Assembly (NCBI GenBank): GCA_963718665.1 | Contig: OY970359.1 | Coordinates: 2,368,001-2,432,000, forward strand | DNA length: 64,000 nucleotides | DNA from: an uncultured Phycisphaerales bacterium | Lineage (GTDB): Bacteria > Planctomycetota > Phycisphaerae > Sedimentisphaerales > Anaerobacaceae | Direction: 5' to 3' | Part shown: piece after piece, positions 40,578-53,915 of the stretch | Position numbering within the stretch: the stretch's first letter is position 1 | How the letters are laid out: the number at the start of each line of letters is the position of its first letter | Made by a program: the position numbers and the translations under genes | Notes under the pieces: generated by a model | Seen by the model: the letters and a program-made list of their open reading frames with translations, nothing else | The model's database searches: none | What the model was told of the DNA's origin: nothing

Positions 40578-42560
40578 GTGCTTACCAACAACCGTATCAA
40601 AGCTGTAATACTCGCTGGAGTTCGTGACTTTGGGCGCTGCCCCATAGCATCACGTTTGCCTGCACCGCTGTGGCCGGTGGCAGGAGAGTTTACCTTGAAA
40701 CGTCTGCTTCTGCACTTAGCCAGTCAGGGGATAAAGCACATAACAATCTGTTCGAACGGTGACAGTTCGTTGCTAAAGAAAGCAATTGATATTGAAAACA
40801 TCCGGACGTTAGATGTGTGTTTTTGGGAGGAACCGCTGCCGGTCGGCACCGCGGGATCCATTCGCGACGCCGTGAATGGTAAGACAGACGAATTGGTCCT
40901 GGTATTTTCCGCCAATATGATGCGTCCCCCCGATATTAGTTTGTTGATAGCCGCTCACCACGAACAGGGGGCCGACTTAACCGTGGCGTTCAATCCAGCG
41001 TCGGAAAATGACAATATAAGGGGTGAGGCAGCTGGCATCTATGTCTGCAATTCATCTGTGTTGGAACACATTCCAGCAGTAGGTTATTACGACATAAAAG
41101 AAAGTTTGATTCCGGAACTGCTTCGAGCTGGTAAACATGTGCATTATTCTGTGCTGCCACACAGTGCTGGCAATTTCCGCGATTGGCGAGGGTATTTGGA
41201 TGCCATCAGCAACTACCTCGAAAACATGGCAGAAACAGATATCGATTTGAAAATATGTGAGAAGAATAGCAGGCACGTTATCTGGAAGGGTCATGGGGCA
41301 ATTGTTGAGTCAGGAGTGCGGTTTTGCGGCCGGGTTGTTATTCTCGATGGCGCTCGCATCGAAACAGGTGTTGTGATATTTGGTCCGACTATTCTCGGGC
41401 GCAACGTCAGTATCGGCGAAGACAGTGTTGTTGCCGGCAGTGTTATTTGGGATAATTCGCAGATAGGTAAGAACTGTGAAATCCAACGATGCCTCGTCGA
41501 TTACAATGTGGTCGTGCCGGACAATAACGTGGCAGGGGGCAACTGCATACCATCTGAACCGAAGGGAAGCTTGAAAAGGTCGATTACCAGGGCGTCGAAG
41601 CCGGAGAAACAAGGAGTTGGCGGATTGCGGCGGCAACCGCAACAGGCGTTTGGCAATCTGAACGAAAAACAACCGAATCGAAGGCAACGACAAGAACGAA
41701 GCATTCTGCCGTGGTTGGCGAGTGGGTTTGTATTCCTTGCTTTCTTGTGGTCTTACTGGCCTGGGATTATGGACCTGTGGAATACCTGGCAGAGGAGTGA
41801 TGAGTATTCCTCCGGCCTTTTGGTTCCTTTTCTTGCTGTTTACATCTTGTGGTCGAGGCGCCGGCAGATAATCGGAGTTCAGATACAGCCATCCTTGTGG
41901 GGCCTGCTGGCGTTTGTGGTAGTTCAGGCGGTGAGATTCTTCGGTCTATTCTTTATGTACGGTTCCGCGGAGAGATTATCGATTGTTTTAAGCATTGCTG
42001 CGCTGGTGTTGCTCTTGTTTGGGTGGGAGTTTTTCCGCAAAGTGTCTCCAATAGTGCTGTTTCTGCTCTTGATGTTGCCTTGGCCCAATCGGGTTCAGGC
42101 CGCTCTCGCGTTGCCTCTGCAGCGATGGGCTACATCATCTGCGGTGTTCTGTCTGGAGGTGATGGGTTACGATGTTGCGCACGAAGGCAATATCATTCAT
42201 ATCGGTAATGTCACCGTCGCAGTGGCGGAAGCGTGTAACGGGTTAAGGATGGTCACGGCATTTTTTGTAATTAGTGGCCTTGTGGTATTGCTGGTCGAAC
42301 GGGCGTGGTGGGAAAAGCTGATAGTCTTTGTTTCCAGCTTGCCCATCGCTCTGCTCTGCAACACTGTGCGACTGGCAATTACCGCGATTGCTTTCACAGT
42401 ACTTAAAGGTGAATACTGGGAGAAGATGTTTCATGACTTTGGTGGATATGCGATGATGCCGCTGGCCCTTGCGATAGTAGTTGGTGAACTTTGGTTTTTG
42501 GTAAAACTAACGACAGCCCCAAAGCAGAATAGAATAGTGGTAACCAAGGGTGCCCAATGA
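40578..42560 (+). CDS. Exosortase fused to an N-terminal degenerate nucleotidyltransferase + LbH module
   Basis: N-term KAVILAG, EPLPVGTAGSI, hexapeptide repeats; C-term TMs with VAEACNGLR, N.VR and HD (Cys/Arg/His triad). Confidence 0.9.
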   Translation: MLTNNRIKAVILAGVRDFGRCPIASRLPAPLWPVAGEFTLKRLLLHLASQGIKHITICSNGDSSLLKKAIDIENIRTLDVCFWEEPLPVGTAGSIRDAVNGKTDELVLVFSANMMRPPDISLLIAAHHEQGADLTVAFNPASENDNIRGEAAGIYVCNSSVLEHIPAVGYYDIKESLIPELLRAGKHVHYSVLPHSAGNFRDWRGYLDAISNYLENMAETDIDLKICEKNSRHVIWKGHGAIVESGVRFCGRVVILDGARIETGVVIFGPTILGRNVSIGEDSVVAGSVIWDNSQIGKNCEIQRCLVDYNVVVPDNNVAGGNCIPSEPKGSLKRSITRASKPEKQGVGGLRRQPQQAFGNLNEKQPNRRQRQERSILPWLASGFVFLAFLWSYWPGIMDLWNTWQRSDEYSSGLLVPFLAVYILWSRRRQIIGVQIQPSLWGLLAFVVVQAVRFFGLFFMYGSAERLSIVLSIAALVLLLFGWEFFRKVSPIVLFLLLMLPWPNRVQAALALPLQRWATSSAVFCLEVMGYDVAHEGNIIHIGNVTVAVAEACNGLRMVTAFFVISGLVVLLVERAWWEKLIVFVSSLPIALLCNTVRLAITAIAFTVLKGEYWEKMFHDFGGYAMMPLALAIVVGELWFLVKLTTAPKQNRIVVTKGAQ

Positions 42561-46670: not shown

Positions 46671-49600
46671 ATGGCAGGGAGATATTTTAACTGGAAATTG
46701 ATAATAGTCTTGTTGATAGGACTTGTTGTTCTGGGCTCTACTGCTTTGGGTTTACGTAAATGGCAGAAAAGCAGAAGGGCCGAACAGGGGCTTGTGCTCG
46801 GGAACAAAGCGTATGATGAGCACAGGTGGGAAGAGGCAGCAAATCAACTTGGCCGTTATCTCGGTGTTATGCAGGATGATGTGCCGACGCTGCTCAAGTA
46901 TGCCGAGGCGCAGTTAAATATCAGACCTTTGAAACAAGACAACATTCAGCAGGCCATAGCAGCTTACCGGAACGTTTTGCGACTGGACCAAAGCAACATC
47001 AAGGCTGCGAAGCCCCTAAGTGAAATGTATTTAAGTATGGGGATGCCCGGAGAAGCCGAACTGGTTGTTACTCGGGCACTGCAAGCGGGCGAATCGATAG
47101 AACTGCGAAAAGTCCTGGCAATCGCTCTGGCAAACCAGCGCAAATTTACAGAAGCGGCAAAGGAGCTCAAAAGCATCATCGAGAAAAATCCCGAGCAGGC
47201 ATCGGTCTATGAGGTATTGGGTCGGCTGGTTGAGCAGCGTCCCGAAGAATTCACCGAAGACCCTAACTTTTGGTTTGACCAGGCAGTAAAAACAAACCCC
47301 TTTTCCGCAGAGGCCTATATTGCTCGCGGGGCATACTTCTTAAGGCATGGAAACAAGAATGGGGCGATGGCCGATTTGGAACAGGCAGAACAAAAGGATT
47401 TGTCCGATCCAACTACACGGCTTCGGCTTGCGGAGGGGTTGATTAATGCGGATGCTGCGGACCGCGCCAAAAAACAACTCGAGATTATTCATGCTTTGGA
47501 GCCAAACAATCAGCTTCTGTGGCAGCTATGGGCGCAGCTTGCACTTAAATCGGACTTAAATGATATGATGTTGAAAGTTGCGGACACCGGATTGAAAGAG
47601 CTTTCGTCTCAACCTTGGGATTTTATGCCCGATGCCGCAGAGTTGTTCATCAGATGTGGTCAGCTTGAACGTGCCGGAGAGTGTATCTCTATGATGCGCC
47701 AAAAGGACGTTGCTCCTGCGATGACGGCTTTTTTGGGGGGGCTTTTGGCTGAAAGCCAGGGACGCGGTTATGAAGCTGTCAAGTATTGGCGTCAAGCGAT
47801 TCAGTTGGGGGCTAAGTCCGCGAGGGTGCGAATCGCACTGGCTAACGCGCTATGGCGGCTTGGTGACAGGCAGTCAGGTATCAATCAGTTACGTACCCTC
47901 GTTTCGGAACAACCGAATCTTTTTAGCGGACGTATGGCTCTTGCACGGATGCTGGCGGAGACCGGTCGATGGGCTGATGTGGCGGAGCAAACTCGTATGG
48001 CAAGGCAAATCGCCCCGCATAGCGGCGATGCGGTCTTACTGGATATCCAGGCGAGGATACAAGTGCTCGCAGACAGCAAGACAGATAAGGAGTCATCGTC
48101 GTATCGTGATATAGAGGCGACACTTGATAACCTTGATAAAGCCACTAATGGCGCCATCGAAGTCAAACTTTTGCAGTTTCGGCTTGCTCTTCAGCGGGAC
48201 AAACTGCCTGAGGCCGAGAAACTAATAGCCGACTTGGAGAAGGCACATCCGGCTGAATTGAAGGTTACTTTGGCCGAGGCAGACTTGCTCGTTGCACAGA
48301 ACAAAATCGATGACGCAATCGCAAAACTACGCGAGGCAATCGGCACATCCCCGCAGTCCACGGCGGTTATGAGGTATCTTGTTGTTTTGCTGGCAGCAAA
48401 GGGGGACCATCAGGAATGTGAAACGCTGATTAAGTACGCCCTCGCATCCGGGGTACAACCTCCCGCGAAAATAGAGATGTGTTTGTTGCTGAGTGACGTT
48501 TATAGTCGCTGGAACGAGAGCGGCAAACGTTATTCGCTGCTCAACTCGCTTGCCGAGGAGCTGCAGGACGACATTATCGTCCAGCGGGAGCTGTTGACGT
48601 GTGAGGAGGTATTAAAAGACAGCAGCCGTGCACAGCATGTCGTTGACAGGATTAAGAGTATCGAGGGCGATGACGGCTGGCAGTGGCGATATGAACAGGC
48701 GAAGATTTGGTTCGCTCAGGAAGATTTCAAGAGTCGATACCCTCAAATCGTGTCGCTTCTTCAGGGAAATCTTCTGGCCAATCCCGATGACCAGGCCAGC
48801 CGAGTGTTGTTGGCGGCGGCATACGAAAAAGGGGATGACCAGCGTCTTGCGATTTCGACTTATACTGAGGCGATTAACCGATCACCAAAAGACATTCGGA
48901 TAATAGTGCCCGCGGTTGCCGCTCTTTATAGGGCTGGCGAATATGCCCGGGCGGAGGAAATTCTCAAGCAGGCGGCCGAAGAGAAGCTTTACCATCCCGA
49001 ACTGGAACGGCTGGAGATCCAGGGTGCCCTTGGACGCGGTGACCTTGGCTCTGCGAATGATGTTCTGGAGAAAATGCTGGACAGAGACCCGAACAACCAC
49101 TCGGTGTGCTTGTCTCTTGCCCTGCTGAAAATTCGGCAGGATCAATTAACGGAAGCGGATAAGTTGGTGGGGAAGTTGAGGACCGAAGAGCCGAATTCTT
49201 TGCCGATTGCTGCGGCACAAGTTGAGCTGGATATTCGCAGGGGCAAGTCCGACGACGCCTTACACATCTGTGATAAAATGGTGAATAAATTGCATACTGC
49301 TTCTGCCTGTTTGCTTCGCGGGAGGACATACGCTGCTCTGAAGCAGGCCGACAAGGCAAGAGAAGATTTTGAACGTGCAGTAACTATGGAACCCAACAAT
49401 GCGGATGCATGGGTTGCCAAGAGTATTTTTCATCATTCACTTGGAGAATCTGACAAGGCAATTTCCGATATTAGCCACGCATTATCTGTTATACCAGATG
49501 ACCTGCAAATCCAGAAAACCGCAGTGTCCCTTTATCTGGCATCGGACAATAATGCTTTACGTCAGGAAGGAGAGTCGATTCTTCAAAAAGCGATGGACTC

Positions 49601-50842
49601 GCATCCTGAAGATGCCGAACTTCGCCTCCAGAAAGCGCAGCTGCTGCTTGCCAAAGGGACAGCTCCAGAAATCGAGGAGGCAACAGGTATCCTTCAGGCC
49701 ATAACCGAAAAGCAGCCGGATGTTGGAGATGCTTGGGTGCTTCTGGCACAGATTGCTTTGCAGGACGGCAAACCAGCAAAGGCGATTGACATTGCTTTGC
49801 GTGGTCTTGTCCACAGGCCTAATGACAGAACCCTGCTGTTGTTGAAGGCGAGGGGGGAGGCGGCAAGGTCTCCGGCTCTGGCGTTGCCGACTATGAGGGC
49901 TTTGTGGGAACTCGACCCGAACAACGCAGACGCGACGGTTTCTCTGGCTGAAACATACGTGGCCGCGGGCGAGTATGAGGAGGCAGTAGATTTTCTCAGA
50001 AAACAACCGGCTTCTACAGATGCTTTGCAACAACGCAGGATTAAGTTGGCTCTTGCCATGGCGATGTACAAGAATGGCGATAAGACCGAGTCAGAGGAAA
50101 TACTCCGAGTGTTGTACGAGTCAGAACCGAACGACCCCAGTCCGTTGTTGGCACAAATCAGACTGCTGCGGGACGACAAACTGTGGGGCCAGTTGCGAGA
50201 GAAGGTTACCGCCTGGTGTGAAGAGCATTTCAATGAGACAAGAACAACTGTCTTTATCGCTGATGAGCTCGCGGGAGTCAAAGACGGCGAAAGTAAACAG
50301 ATAGCCGAGGAATTATTGCGATGCGTTCTGAAGCGAGATGCGAATTCTGCTGTGGTAATGACGCGACTTGGTATGTTGCTGCAGACGGCCGGGCATCGGC
50401 AGAAGCGGCAAAACTGTATGAGCGGGTTCTTGAACTGCAGCCCGATAATCCGATCGTCATTAATAATCTTGCGTGGATTCTTTGTGAGGAGCAGGGGCGT
50501 CCTAATGAGGCGATAGAGCTTGCTGAACGTGGCCTGGCGAAGGCGCCTGACTACGTTGATTTGATTGACACTCGTGGTATGGCGTACTATCGGCTGAAGC
50601 AGTACGACAAAGCGGCGCAGGATTTCAAGAAGTGCGTCCGCTTATATCCCAGCCGGGCGTTGGCCATAGTCACTTCGTATTTTCATTTGGGAAGGTGTCT
50701 GGCAGACCTTGGAGAAAAAGCTCAGGCAATTGAGCAATTGAACAAGGCCCTTGAGTTAAACAAAGAACTTGGCGGCCTGGGCAGCGCTGATATCGCCGAG
50801 GCACAGCGATTGCTGGTACAATTATCAGGTGGAGGAAATTAA
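46671..50842 (+). CDS. Large membrane-anchored TPR protein (PrsT-like), frameshifted near 50393
   Basis: TPR repeats throughout; frame 46671 loses TPR character after LLQTAG and frame 50321 resumes SAEAAKLYERVLELQPDN..NNLAW. Confidence 0.8.
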
Positions 50843-50843
50843 T

Positions 50844-51257
50844 ATGTTGGAATCATCACAACCAGGAAGAAAAGTCAGCGGCACTGATAACGGGGCGGAC
50901 GAGTCACTGTATAAGCGGCCTGATGTGAGTTTGCTTGATGATGGACAGTGGCTCTATGTGCAGCACCGCTATCGCTTAAGCCCGCGCGAGCTACAGGTGG
51001 CTAAACACGTATGCCAGGGGTTTGCCAACGAAGAGGTAGCAGCGTGCCTGAGGATAAGGGCCGGCACCGTGAAAACACACTTGCGCAACATTTACCGGAG
51101 AGTTCACGTCACCAACAAAATAGGGATGTTGCTGACCTTTGTTGAACAGGTAGCCAGTTCCTGTAGTAAACCCGGGACCGTCGGCTGCGGAATGACTATT
51201 GTTAATATGATACAGCAGGCAAAACCGGCTACAGGGTCATCTGATGAGACACATTAA
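50844..51257 (+). CDS. Stand-alone LuxR-type HTH regulator
   Basis: LSPRELQV...G.ANEEVA..L.I..GTVKTHLRNIY; GGAGG RBS; no receiver domain. Confidence 0.88.
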   Translation: MLESSQPGRKVSGTDNGADESLYKRPDVSLLDDGQWLYVQHRYRLSPRELQVAKHVCQGFANEEVAACLRIRAGTVKTHLRNIYRRVHVTNKIGMLLTFVEQVASSCSKPGTVGCGMTIVNMIQQAKPATGSSDETH

Positions 51258-51489
51258 AGAACACAGGCAAACAGGATATCAATCCTGAACATATACCTGC
51301 CATAAGTTTCATTTCTTTTTTCTCGCCTCCGAATAAGGTATTCCCGCAATTTTGTCATAAAGAGCATTACCATTTTAGGGTTAACCCAAAAGAGTATATT
51401 TGCTCGTCTTTGAGCTAAAATCAAGAGGTGAAATATACCACCATTAGAGTTTTCCCGCAAGTATTTCTCAGAATTTTCGGACTTTTCTG

Positions 51490-51519
51490 TTGACTAAATG
51501 CTTACGATAGAGTTAAACT
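51490..51519 (+). promoter_or_regulatory. Possible sigma70 promoter for 51606 and the downstream sorted-protein genes
   Basis: TTGACT-18 nt-TAAACT. Confidence 0.4.
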
Positions 51520-51605
51520 TACCTATTGTAGCTTAGTGCGGGGAGGGATCCCCAGGTAGTATAACGCCTCAGTTCTTTAGTATGTGTTAGGTGGAGGTGT
51601 AAAGA

Positions 51606-52415
51606 GTGTCAGAGCGGAGACGGGGGAAAACCTTAGCGATTGTGGTGTTGCTATGTGCGGCTTCGGTTGCCAGCGCATTTCCTACCGTCATTTCAGGAAA
51701 TGCACCCGTCTGTTCTATATCCACATCAGACGACTGCGCCACCAATGTTATGATCTATTGCCTGGGCCCCAGTGCGGCCTGCGACCAGATAAGTGAATTG
51801 GGCAGGGTGATGCTCCAGCCGCCGTCCGGCAGTCAGATAACGGTAACATCAGAGAACCAGCGTTGCCTGCCCGCGTTGCCGTCGGCGATAGCAATGGTTC
51901 TGACGGGATTCATATGTATCTCTTTGATTCGGGACCGCAGGGCCTGGCTGGCTGTCCTGGCGGGGCTGCTGTGGGTGGGCCAGACAGGTATTTGGGCTTT
52001 GCCCGAAGTGACCTCACGGCTGAGCCGAAGAGTCCACAGCGGCCAACAAGTTAACACGGCACTTGCTGCCCCGTATCCTCTCGGAGGATGTTTCTATCCA
52101 GATAGTTACAATGAAGAGACCCGATATGCAGGTCTTTTGCACCACCTTGCCGGCATACCTCGAGACATCAGCACCTTCACAAATAACCGCACGGTACTTA
52201 TCAGGTATTTTTCCGGCGTGGCCGGTAAAGATACGCGAGCATTGCATCACGCGATTCTCGAATCGCAGCTTGTCTTAAGCCAGCTAACTAACTGTTTGGT
52301 TTCCGGAACCAGGCAGTTCGTTTGTTTCAAACCAGCATTCATTTCTTTCTGCCAATTACCGCGTGGCCCTCCTATATCCGCAGAGATACTTTTTGAAAAA
52401 CCCGCAGGAGTGTAA
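51606..52415 (+). CDS. Membrane protein with signal peptide, internal sorting-like motif and C-terminal RGPP (candidate arrest-peptide leader)
   Basis: GGAGG RBS + GTG; LAIVVLLCAASVASA; LPALPSA-TM-RDRR; second TM; LPRGPP. Confidence 0.7.
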   Translation: MSERRRGKTLAIVVLLCAASVASAFPTVISGNAPVCSISTSDDCATNVMIYCLGPSAACDQISELGRVMLQPPSGSQITVTSENQRCLPALPSAIAMVLTGFICISLIRDRRAWLAVLAGLLWVGQTGIWALPEVTSRLSRRVHSGQQVNTALAAPYPLGGCFYPDSYNEETRYAGLLHHLAGIPRDISTFTNNRTVLIRYFSGVAGKDTRALHHAILESQLVLSQLTNCLVSGTRQFVCFKPAFISFCQLPRGPPISAEILFEKPAGV

Positions 52416-52512
52416 TCGCGAAACACTTCTTGAAGGTTTGAATCGTTTTAATAAGGAAACCGGCATTTTTGCCGGAAAAGATAAATCGAAAAAAATAGAA
52501 AGGATGACAATT

Positions 52513-53142
52513 ATGAAAAAGTTACTTTTAATAACAACGTTGGTCGCCTTAATGACCGTTCCGGTCTTGGCGACACCAACTATTGACTTCAGCCAGTCCA
52601 CCGGCGGATGGAGTTATACGGCATCGGGTCCGGGCACAGGGACTTTTTCGTTCCAGCCTATGATTATCGTTGATCAGGGACTGGGCAGTAGTTTGGACCC
52701 GCTCGTTGGTAAAGAGGTAGTCATCCCTGACCTGACTCTAAGTGTACTGAACGTCCTTACTCCAGTAACCTCAACGATAAAAATTACGGATGGTTCAACA
52801 GATTATCTTACCGGTACGCTCGGCAGTGGGAATGCTTACATAGTTTTTGCGACCGTAACCGGCTATCCCGAAATCCAAGCTGATATAACGGGCGTTACAG
52901 TTATTAACACCATTTCATCGCCGGCTTTGGCAGCTATTGACTCATATCCATTGGACTTTGCTCTTTCATTGAATTTGGCTGGGGTAAATGTCCAAAATGC
53001 AATCAGTCTTGGTCATCCAAATCTCAGAGGCGGTTCAGTGGCAGGATCGATGAACATTATCGTTCCTGCTCCTGGTGCAATTCTGCTGGGCAGCATCGGT
53101 GTGGGTCTTGTCGGCTGGTTGCGAAGGAGAAGAACACTGTAA
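52513..53142 (+). CDS. PEP-CTERM-like (VPAPG variant) surface protein
   Basis: Signal peptide; Thr/Ser/Gly-rich; [26 protein letters not shown]. Confidence 0.9.
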   Translation: MKKLLLITTLVALMTVPVLATPTIDFSQSTGGWSYTASGPGTGTFSFQPMIIVDQGLGSSLDPLVGKEVVIPDLTLSVLNVLTPVTSTIKITDGSTDYLTGTLGSGNAYIVFATVTGYPEIQADITGVTVINTISSPALAAIDSYPLDFALSLNLAGVNVQNAISLGHPNLRGGSVAGSMNIIVPAPGAILLGSIGVGLVGWLRRRRTL

Positions 53143-53181: not shown

Positions 53182-53847
53182 ATGAAAAAGTTAATTTTAA
53201 TAATAGCTTTGCTGGCGCTAATGGCAACACCTGCGCTGGCGGCCCCAACTATCAACATCGGTAACCAAAGTCTCGGATACTGGAAGCAGGGCGACCCCGG
53301 CACTACATATCAAGTCTGGGATTTCACGCCAGCTTCCCAGAATCCAGGTAATCCTATCCAGTTCTTCCCTGAGCAAGAATTAAATCCCAATGACCCGGGC
53401 AATATGGTTTACGCACAGACACTTCCTGGTACCTGGGATGGAAGCAGCGCTCTCGTAAGCAGCGCGGACAACGGCAACAGGATTGTTGTAGACTTGAAAA
53501 TCAATAACTATGCAAACGCCAACCCCTATAAGTATATCTGGGTTGACTTAGGGCTAACAGGTGGCAGCATAGAAAATGCTACAGCGGCAGGAGATGATCC
53601 CACAGTCGACGTTACCTCCAGTCTCGTCGGATCTGCACCTAATGGAATAGGAACTAGTTTCGGCTTTTTACTCAGGCCAAATCCGAGCTTTGAAACAATA
53701 GTAATCACTATAGATGGTGGATCACTGGATTGGATTCACGTCGATACCATCTGCACCACCACCACCGTCCCTGCTCCGGGAGCAATTTTGCTGGGCAGCA
53801 TTGGCGTAGGTCTTGTCGGCTGGCTTCGAAGACGCAGGACTTTGTGA
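53182..53847 (+). CDS. PEP-CTERM-like (VPAPG variant) surface protein; paralog of 18724-19347
   Basis: Same tail as upstream gene; body SLGYW..G.PGTT...WDFTPAS shared with 18724. Confidence 0.9.
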
Positions 53848-53880: not shown

Positions 53881-53915
53881 GGGGCTGGGAATTACGACCC
53901 AGCCCCGTTTTTTTT
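53881..53915 (+). terminator. Intrinsic terminator
   Basis: GGGGCTGGG-8 nt-CCCAGCCCC then G and T8. Confidence 0.85.

Follow-up and report, generated by a model that had tools for sequence, protein, structure and literature searches.

A probable translation-arrest leader with a cargo-like front precedes xPAPG-type PEP-CTERM genes in Sedimentisphaerales-type Planctomycetota

Introduction

In the genome of an uncultured Phycisphaerales bacterium (assembly GCA_963718665.1), an open reading frame (ORF) of 269 aa stands ahead of two PEP-CTERM genes. The question that this locus raises is what this ORF does for the genes that follow it. A sequence-only reading had proposed a ribosome-arrest leader that monitors sorting by an exosortase and controls the downstream surface-protein genes. 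Here, this proposal is weighed against the relatives of the ORF, its neighboring genes, the RNA structures around it, and the published arrest peptides. Coordinates refer to the whole stretch of DNA that was analyzed, 64,000 nucleotides of contig OY970359.1 (hereafter, the window). Its features are given in Table 1.

Table 1. Features of the leader locus and of the associated sorting genes in the window.
Feature	Position	Strand	Basis
Nucleotidyltransferase-like domain fused to exosortase, 660 aa	40578..42560	+	PF09721 E 1e-58; TIGR02602 over cut-off
Stand-alone LuxR/GerE HTH protein, EpsA-like	50844..51257	+	PF00196 E 8e-13; TIGR03020 EpsA best NCBIfam match, below cut-off
Sigma-70-like promoter TTGACT-18-TAAACT	51490..51519	+	Consensus match only; 5 found vs 4.4 expected
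5'-UTR hairpin GGGGAGGGATCCCC, GGA loop, CsrA-site-like	51540..51553	+	Pattern in 25/64 upstream regions vs 0-2 in shuffles
Leader ORF, 269 aa	51606..52415	+	GTG start 51606, TAA stop 52413-52415
Signal peptide and mature start xP[TS]	51621..51686	+	Conservation, hydropathy; cargo proteins share start
Internal sorting-signal-like segment, LPxxP + TM1 + basic RDRR	51867..51941	+	Conservation, cargo register, profile comparisons
Marginal TM2 (W..L.GLLW.GQ.G...LP), amphipathic helix, YxGLLHHLAGIP helix	51942..52160	+	Conservation, spacing, low-confidence model
Hairpin H1 inside coding region, codons CL-x5-Q	52290..52318	+	Mean pair probability 0.7-0.8
Weakly structured C>G, U-rich stretch holding putative stall site, rut-like	52319..52392	+	C 0.30, G 0.15, T 0.35
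Candidate RGPP arrest motif, closing F-x-PAF-x-F-x4-RGPP block	52362..52373	+	Conservation; stalling by analogy (PMC12992588)
Hairpin H2, CGCG-containing loop	52398..52439 (core 52405-52431)	+	Covariation
Hairpin H3, CCGGCA/TGCCGG	52460..52475	+	z -3.4 here; variable, not sequence-conserved in family
First cargo gene, VPAPG-type PEP-CTERM protein	52513..53142	+	PF07589 19.0 bits, just under 20.7 cut-off
Second cargo gene, VPAPG-type PEP-CTERM protein	53182..53847	+	PF07589 19.5 bits (cut-off 20.7)
Intrinsic terminator closing operon	53881..53914	+	9-bp stem, 8 G-C pairs, T run

Results and Discussion

Architecture of the leader

The leader has a ribosome-binding site (GGAGG, 51593-51597) 8 nt upstream of its GTG codon. 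Its signal peptide and first transmembrane segment (TM1) were called from hydropathy and conservation. The hydrophobic stretch at aa 6-31 (KD17 up to 2.4) confirms the signal peptide of the sequence-only reading, and the start of the mature protein is conserved (A24 95%, P26 94%, and T27 99%). The sorting-signal-like segment, from LPALPSA (aa 88, 51867) through RDRR (ending at 51941), lies exactly where it had been placed. Leader residues P89, P92, G101, and R111 are invariant among 70 aligned sequences, and C104 is 96-100% conserved. The proposed second transmembrane segment (TM2) is present but marginal (median KD19 1.4), with three K/R residues within the following 20 aa. Two features had been overlooked, namely a conserved hairpin in the coding region (52290-52318) and a helix, YxGLLHHLAGIP (aa 174-185), that is conserved and keeps a constant spacing of 60-62 aa from RDRR. 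An AlphaFold2 model of low confidence (pLDDT 58, pTM 0.27), too weak for a fold search and used for helix positions only, predicts helices at 111-131, 133-143, and 170-182.

Comparisons with Pfam (including 70 family members), NCBIfam, and PDB sequences gave no match, and all Rfam matches were below the gathering scores. The nearest named ESM Atlas clusters were SecM and DUF2946 at 0.79; all matches were below 0.9 and serve as leads only. No paralogue of the leader was found within the host genome.

Arrest motif

The RGPP motif occupies aa 253-256, 13 codons before the TAA codon. This position had been given correctly but is atypical, because the motif lies three codons before the stop in 98 of the 146 non-redundant loci, which is the family norm. 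The motif itself is conserved, as the sequence-only reading had expected of an arrest sequence of the R[GA]PP type: the 146 loci comprise 137 with RGPP, five with RAPP, and four with HGPP. Among the 120 homologues listed of the 225 found by word-based search, 118 have RGPP, and the other two align to no more than 65-75% of the query. A set of 260 family proteins includes 232 with RGPP, eight with RSPP, seven with RAPP, six with HGPP, and seven with none, such that 253 carry the motif. Of 185 matched loci, 180 have [RH][AG]PP, one has RSPP, and four are cut by the contig end. Distant members of the family end in RPPP. The proportion of CCT at the last Pro codon is 84% across the loci, compared with 25% for the second Pro codons of PP pairs in the host.

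In published work, RGPP was the strongest arrest sequence in four contexts and the most avoided tetrapeptide across ten bacterial groups, and all seven Streptomyces lividans proteins with a C-terminal RAPP/RGPP stalled the ribosome (PMC12992588). The reported RAPP-like lists include HGPP, RSPP, and RPPP (PMC10987492). Among 1151 long ORFs of the present host, none contains RGPP (4.2 occurrences expected). However, KGPP is depleted equally (0 vs 5.3), and thus the depletion is not Arg-specific in this one genome. By analogy with the published peptides, the ORF is very probably a translation-arrest leader. Elsewhere in the host genome, outside the window, a 158-aa ORF that ends in PRAPPVVS (G000:C1:2590238-2590714, minus strand) is a candidate RAPP leader.

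Cargo genes and family distribution

The first cargo gene starts with ATG and has a Shine-Dalgarno sequence (SD; AAGGA) at 52500-52504. The host has 21 PEP-CTERM genes, of which only the two behind the leader are of the xPAPG type; the other 19 are xPEP. Promoter, leader, both xPAPG genes, and terminator appear to form one unit, as can be read from the sequence. In the family, the next gene was called in 138 of the 146 loci (five have no room and three were not resolved), and 122 of these genes are complete. The expected position upstream of PEP-CTERM genes held, as 118 of the 122 complete genes end in a PEP-CTERM-type tail, nearly all of them xPAPG. The median gap between motif and downstream ATG is 128 nt. 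Arrays are common, with two to five tails within 3.8 kb in 53 of the 62 loci that have room. Several cargo groups, each with its own leader and with long and short leaders mixed, form tandem arrays at four loci (L195, L246, L247, and L264).

A profile search gave 451 leader clusters at 50% identity, 150 of them listed, and the named records are Phycisphaerae/Sedimentisphaerales bins. The profile matches 87 of the 251 genomes of the order (Sedimentisphaerales-type Planctomycetota) and two of 350 genomes of the phylum outside it, whereas xPAPG cargo occurs in 175 of the 251. Cargo is thus often found without a detectable leader, and the link between leader and cargo is one-way. In three distant loci outside the order (L304, L305, and L303), the next gene is still a cargo gene, of the IPEP, IPLP, or VPEP type; two of these loci adjoin EpsI-like genes, and two of the leaders end in FARPPP. 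Weak profile matches at L200 and L249 precede non-cargo genes and were left out of the family. The L200 match (L200:1279-1530) is a short ORF with MARGPP ahead of a secreted non-PEP-CTERM protein and may be an unrelated RGPP leader.

Among 14 close sequences, purifying selection is evident for the segment (dN/dS 0.19), TM2 (0.22), the YxGLL helix (0.16), and the arrest block (0.21), but not for the spacer (0.64). The spacer varies, as had been expected: its length after the YxGLL helix is 69-102 aa, and RDRR and RGPP are 119-160 aa apart. Taken together, these findings indicate a real, conserved, and unannotated family that is tied to xPAPG cargo and its fused exosortase.

Exosortase, EPS genes, and upstream region

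The EPS cluster that the leader follows also encodes, about 9 kb before it, an exosortase (domain at 41703-42557) fused to a nucleotidyltransferase-like domain. The nearest named type of this enzyme is XrtD, and it reaches the cut-off of no named subtype. In 18 other genomes, an exosortase with this fusion is encoded on the contig of the leader, again upstream and at a distance of about 10 kb. Leader-bearing genomes carry two exosortases, one of them with this fusion. Co-occurrence was compared in 53 of 61 genomes, those common to both surveys, and related genomes among them are not independent. With this caveat, xPAPG cargo is found in all 34 genomes with an exosortase of fused length and in seven of the 19 without, and the leader is found in 31 of 41 cargo-positive and none of 12 cargo-negative genomes. 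The fused exosortase is likely the cognate sorting enzyme of the xPAPG cargo, and the two possibly constitute an unnamed sorting subsystem. The fused domain resembles sugar-1-phosphate nucleotidyltransferases, and the fusion is common in the family.

Other genes of the EPS locus near the leader encode Wzc, WcaJ-like, TPR, and Wza-like proteins and a LuxR-type HTH protein. A frameshift near 50300-50460 breaks the TPR (PrsT-like) gene (46671-50842) into parts of 1281 and 173 aa; close relatives read through at this point, and the frameshift may be an assembly error or a recent break. Under a strict pattern, 31 of 113 loci have the LuxR-type gene immediately ahead of the leader, and the product of this gene is a candidate transcriptional regulator of the operon. 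Upstream of the promoter are repeats TTCCCGCAA at 51341 and 51452 and TACCAT/CT-like boxes at 51368 and 51436, and TACCACTT is present in 23 of 64 upstream regions. The repeats and boxes at 51341-51460 are candidate sites for the adjacent LuxR-type protein. In many relatives, a TTGAC box is found at an equal distance from the 5'-UTR hairpin. The GGA loop of this hairpin is a putative CsrA site; the host has two CsrA genes, and the hairpin is also retained in loci with short or decayed leaders.

Resemblance of the leader front to cargo

When anchored on its second Pro, the segment agrees with the cargo tail at P, A+2, G+9, and the basic positions +17, +19, and +20. Searched against 2411 host proteins, a segment profile has the two cargo tails at ranks three and four, and an hhalign comparison gives 85% (E 6e-6). 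Of the 20 PEP-CTERM proteins among 1057 hydrophobic host proteins, nine fall within the top 25 of this profile. Column-shuffled segment profiles gave 0, 0, 0, 3, 0, 0, 0, and 0 in the top 25, and a TM2 profile ranked its best PEP-CTERM protein at 376. Reverse comparisons were weak (segment at rank 283 of 2411 with xPAPG tails and 63 of 1058 with xPEP tails), and PF07589 matched none of 70 leader members at E<=10. The resemblance extends to the mature start: a crude xP[TS] pattern is present in 125 of 241 leaders, 73 of 118 cargo proteins, and six of 248 background secreted-like proteins. Residues 1-112 of the leader may thus be read as a miniature cargo protein.

The segment has the Pro motif, TM helix, and basic cluster in PEP-CTERM order, yet its motif is P-x-x-P and not the P-x-P tripeptide of PEP-CTERM, and it is internal, 119-160 aa before the arrest motif. 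PEP-CTERM signals are C-terminal almost without exception (PMC1569441). Because it is internal and has PxxP, the segment would be a sorting signal in layout but no PEP-CTERM member. One distant relative reads LPASPGAISLLLFG, which is closer still to the motif of the cargo. In other distant members, the Pro motif is eroded (IPDGP, LSPSECS, and LGGPP) and does not follow that of the cargo.

The conserved sorting-like segment that had been predicted exists in the long leaders, where it resembles the cargo signal, but it is absent from short relatives. At least 12 loci have short leaders (38-106 aa) that lack both the segment and TM2 and precede intact cargo genes. These retain F-x-PAF-x-F-x4-RGPP, and several have their own SD and start. 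Among 52 protein matches, 37 clusters are such short forms with their own N-termini, and some of the others are fragments. Some short leaders are plain deletions of the long form; some are reduced to a signal-like start plus the motif, and forms of 38-55 aa keep the motif block only. Since intact cargo follows these leaders, the segment is not required for the persistence of the cassette. In three syntenic loci of cargo-positive genomes, the arrest motif is decayed or absent, and one distant leader ends without it. One genome has two very distant leader-like ORFs of 343-363 aa (L269:3085-4176 and L269:6348-7379) before VPAPG arrays, each with a signal peptide, a FAGLL(K/R) helix, and LPASPGAISLLLFG or a trace of it. 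In place of RGPP, their C-termini have the block SGQVNIYxSVYQSR(LEP/RFP) in common, which might be an arrest sequence of another kind.

RNA structures and coupling to the cargo genes

Two hairpins flank the putative stall site at a fixed distance, and neither covers the ribosome-binding site. H1 lies 44-66 nt before the motif in 101 of the 132 loci analyzed; in these 101 loci, eight positions are 78-98% paired and pair types are exchanged. H2 was confirmed where a hairpin overlapping the leader stop had been noticed: its core, CAGGAGTGT/ACACTTCTTG at 52405-52431, spans the stop codon. A pattern recognizes H2 in 77 of 132 loci. In an alignment of 78 loci, selected because they possess H2, 92.5% of the cells are paired and 85 are compensatory (0 of 500 shuffles; slid controls 18-60%). 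The loop is 55 +/- 2.8 nt from the Arg codon, whereas its distance to the ATG varies with a standard deviation of 34 nt. The position of H2 is set relative to the arrest codon and not relative to the ATG. Several other identities of H2 were rejected. It is no intrinsic terminator, as it has no U tract (median of three T in the 8 nt after the stem; five or more in 23 of 131 loci). As a sigma-54 promoter, its GG-to-GC spacing would be 9 instead of the consensus 10. As a DNA palindrome, it would not account for the G-U wobble kept at six of seven positions, which favors RNA.

The RNA between H1 and H2 folds no better than shuffles and is, as a family average, C>G and U-rich, with a mild avoidance of G at fourfold sites (0.14-0.18 vs 0.21-0.24). 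The host has a Rho gene. Pairing between the SD and the ribosome footprint at p>0.5 is found in only 24% of 129 loci, and SD release is unsupported as a general mechanism; so is, as a general feature, the SecM-like release of the ribosome-binding site that the sequence-only reading had implied through two named hairpins. The second of those hairpins, H3 (CCGGCA/TGCCGG), does exist at 52460-52475, but it ends 25 nt before the cargo SD and is present in only some relatives. Across loci, the cost of opening the SD falls by >1 kcal/mol in 21%, and the median changes from 4.6 to 4.0 kcal/mol. At the host locus, the MFE structure pairs UAUCC (52375-52379) with the SD. Compared with synonymously recoded sequences, the duplex formed by the last codons and the SD gains 0.8 kcal/mol in stability, and it equals that of cross-locus pairs. 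Together with the preference for CCT as the last Pro codon, this amounts to a weak signal at the codon level for SD release. Rho-type attenuation may tentatively be proposed as the coupling to the cargo genes; SD release is rather doubtful, as is an effect on mRNA stability or some other route.

What the leader may sense

Most likely, the leader switches the cargo genes on when export or anchoring of the cargo lags. The best single reading of how it does so, which we rate as close to an even chance, is that of an arrest leader whose cargo-like front is a decoy sensor for the exosortase. Following published RGPP work, the ribosome would stall with the two Pro codons (52368-52373) in its P and A sites. 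The stalled chain would already be inserted in the membrane, with the signal peptide cut, a 60-aa stretch in the periplasm, and the Pro motif at the outer face. With TM1 followed by RDRR on the inside, this placement would be cargo-like, and the fused exosortase could engage the chain. We conjecture that a move of the marginal TM2 and of the helix module of fixed length depends on engagement or cleavage, and that such movement would pull the chain out of arrest. As long as it is stalled, the ribosome would keep the cargo genes on, most simply by covering the C>G, U-rich stretch and thereby blocking Rho as in CruR; a further contribution may come from the last codons, which pair weakly with the SD. 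Short relatives without the sensor would be near-constitutive "on" cassettes. The fuller version, in which a dedicated exosortase engages or cuts the nascent decoy on the ribosome, releases the RGPP stall, and shuts down the surface-protein array, is possible but somewhat short of an even chance. The likeness between segment and cargo signal favors the claim of exosortase sensing. Against it, motif and cargo genes are retained in short relatives that lack the segment, and a leader matching the profile is missing from about half of the xPAPG-bearing genomes (87 vs 175 of 251).

The short forms would be explained equally well by an arrest leader that monitors general Sec/YidC export and not the exosortase, as they keep only a signal-like start and the motif. 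In such a leader, TM2 would be a signal-anchor that threads the 140-aa tail through SecYEG, the pull would free the stall as in SecM, VemP, and ApdP, and the cargo-like front would be the leftover of a duplicated cargo gene. The architecture of a localization signal, a variable spacer (119-160 aa), and a C-terminal motif is that of known monitors, and the nearest language-model clusters include SecM alongside DUF2946, leads only at 0.79. However, known Sec monitors control sec or yidC genes, and the targets here are cargo. Moreover, a leftover would not keep a dN/dS of 0.16-0.22 across the segment, TM2, and the YxGLL helix, or the fixed 60-62 aa, and a marginal TM2 followed by net positive charge makes a poor signal-anchor. 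We consider this explanation unlikely.

Still less probable is that the leader senses another part of the EPS or cargo system or a small signal, with the Wzc/TPR/export machinery of the cluster, the lipid or sugar acceptor that the fused nucleotidyltransferase-exosortase uses, or redox state or metal via C104, H179, and H180 as candidates. The conserved module of TM1, TM2, and helices exceeds the needs of a sorting signal, C104 is 96-100% conserved, and the locus has Wzc, WcaJ-like, TPR, and Wza-like genes. Copper-sensing RAPP leaders that use Cys/His have also been published (PMC9426467; PMC12992588). Nevertheless, H179 and H180 are replaced by R, K, or Y in distant members, C230 lies within the RNA hairpin H1, which may be the cause of its conservation, and metal genes are absent downstream. 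Metal binding by the HH pair was rejected, as the two residues are not invariant. A non-regulatory role in sorting, as a membrane accessory subunit or chaperone co-transcribed with its cargo and with RGPP structural or self-slowing, would fit the conserved membrane module and the strict linkage equally well, but it is improbable given that the leader is always first in the operon, exchanges R/H-[GAS]-PP at its terminal motif as arrest families typically do, has 38-55 aa deletion forms that keep only the motif block, has covarying hairpins at a fixed distance from the motif, and uses CCT as the last Pro codon in 84% of loci vs 25% in host PP pairs.

Comparison with known systems

The leader is very probably a variant of the RAPP/RGPP arrest peptides, one that we did not find in print. 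As with ApdA, ApdP, the RQH family, and the S. lividans set (PMC10987492; PMC12992588), it is a small upstream ORF (uORF; 269 aa, <300) with a localization signal, a C-terminal R[GA]PP with H- and S-variants, and a conserved same-strand gene downstream. Unlike them, it has no sequence relation beyond the motif, it targets PEP-CTERM cargo, and its front copies cargo signals. Conserved TM modules, with no known role, also occur in two S. lividans members, and what pulls on most RAPP/RGPP leaders is described as an open question (PMC12992588). The term "PEP-CTERM" is absent from the main texts of PMC12992588 and PMC10987492, and no literature joining PEP-CTERM or exosortases with arrest or stalling was found among the best matches listed. 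The source table of PMC12992588 has at least six RAPP uORFs before IPTL-CTERM genes, five of them multi-TM-like, which are unrelated in sequence to the leader. None of the RAPP uORFs in the rows listed shows the motifs of the leader family, and the RGPP list may hold members. Because the IPTL-CTERM uORFs show none of these motifs, sorted cargo may have acquired upstream arrest motifs on more than one occasion, and these uORFs are possibly a second arrest family at sorted-cargo genes.

The leader family shares with CruR/CutF (DUF2946; PMC9426467; bioRxiv 10.1101/2025.02.05.636593) a motif three residues before the stop, an intergenic gap of 130-160 nt, a weakly structured C>G stretch toward the uORF end, and, as would follow from the model above, a stall that keeps the downstream genes on. 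In CruR, the stalled ribosome blocks Rho (PMC9426467); this Rho dependence was shown for CruR and is only suggested for the leader. The leader differs from CruR in that its consensus has no CXXC, none of 70 members matches DUF2946/PF11162, two membrane segments follow the signal peptide, and the genes downstream are not metal genes.

VemP is a monitoring substrate with a substrate-like N-terminus that reports on the machine handling it. The leader would work likewise, as does SecM. SecM opens an SD-hiding stem beside its stall site (bioRxiv 10.64898/2026.10.26.761930); in the leader family, the SD is about 128 nt away (median) and such a stem is not conserved. Unlike SecM, ApdA, ApdP, and VemP, the leader is found upstream of cargo and not of secA, secDF, or yidC. 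The locus resembles PEP-CTERM/exosortase systems in the order of Pro motif, TM, and basic cluster and in the nearby EpsH-family enzyme, TPR, and EPS genes (PMC1569441). However, its signal is internal and its cargo is the xPAPG subtype tied to an exosortase with a fused nucleotidyltransferase, and the control described for PEP-CTERM systems is transcriptional, by sigma-54 and PrsK/PrsR in Proteobacteria (PMC1569441).

Implications

Sec/YidC monitoring and copper sensing are established roles of arrest peptides, and the leader family names a concrete candidate for what pulls on such a chain. Natural controls exist within the family, as the cargo-like module is present in the long leaders and missing from the short ones, and the motif itself varies. 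Should the decoy reading prove true, exosortase systems would regulate their own load post-transcriptionally, and the leader would be the first feedback sensor for a sortase-like enzyme, working through substrate mimicry and not through Sec pulling or metal binding. It would then provide an assay for exosortase activity. With its internal signal and the long C-terminal extension behind it, the leader would also lend itself to reporting exosortase cleavage, of which the site and acceptor are poorly known. If the decoy reading fails, there is still an unannotated arrest family with two covarying hairpins and an unnamed subsystem of xPAPG cargo and fused exosortase, which sits in an abundant sediment lineage.
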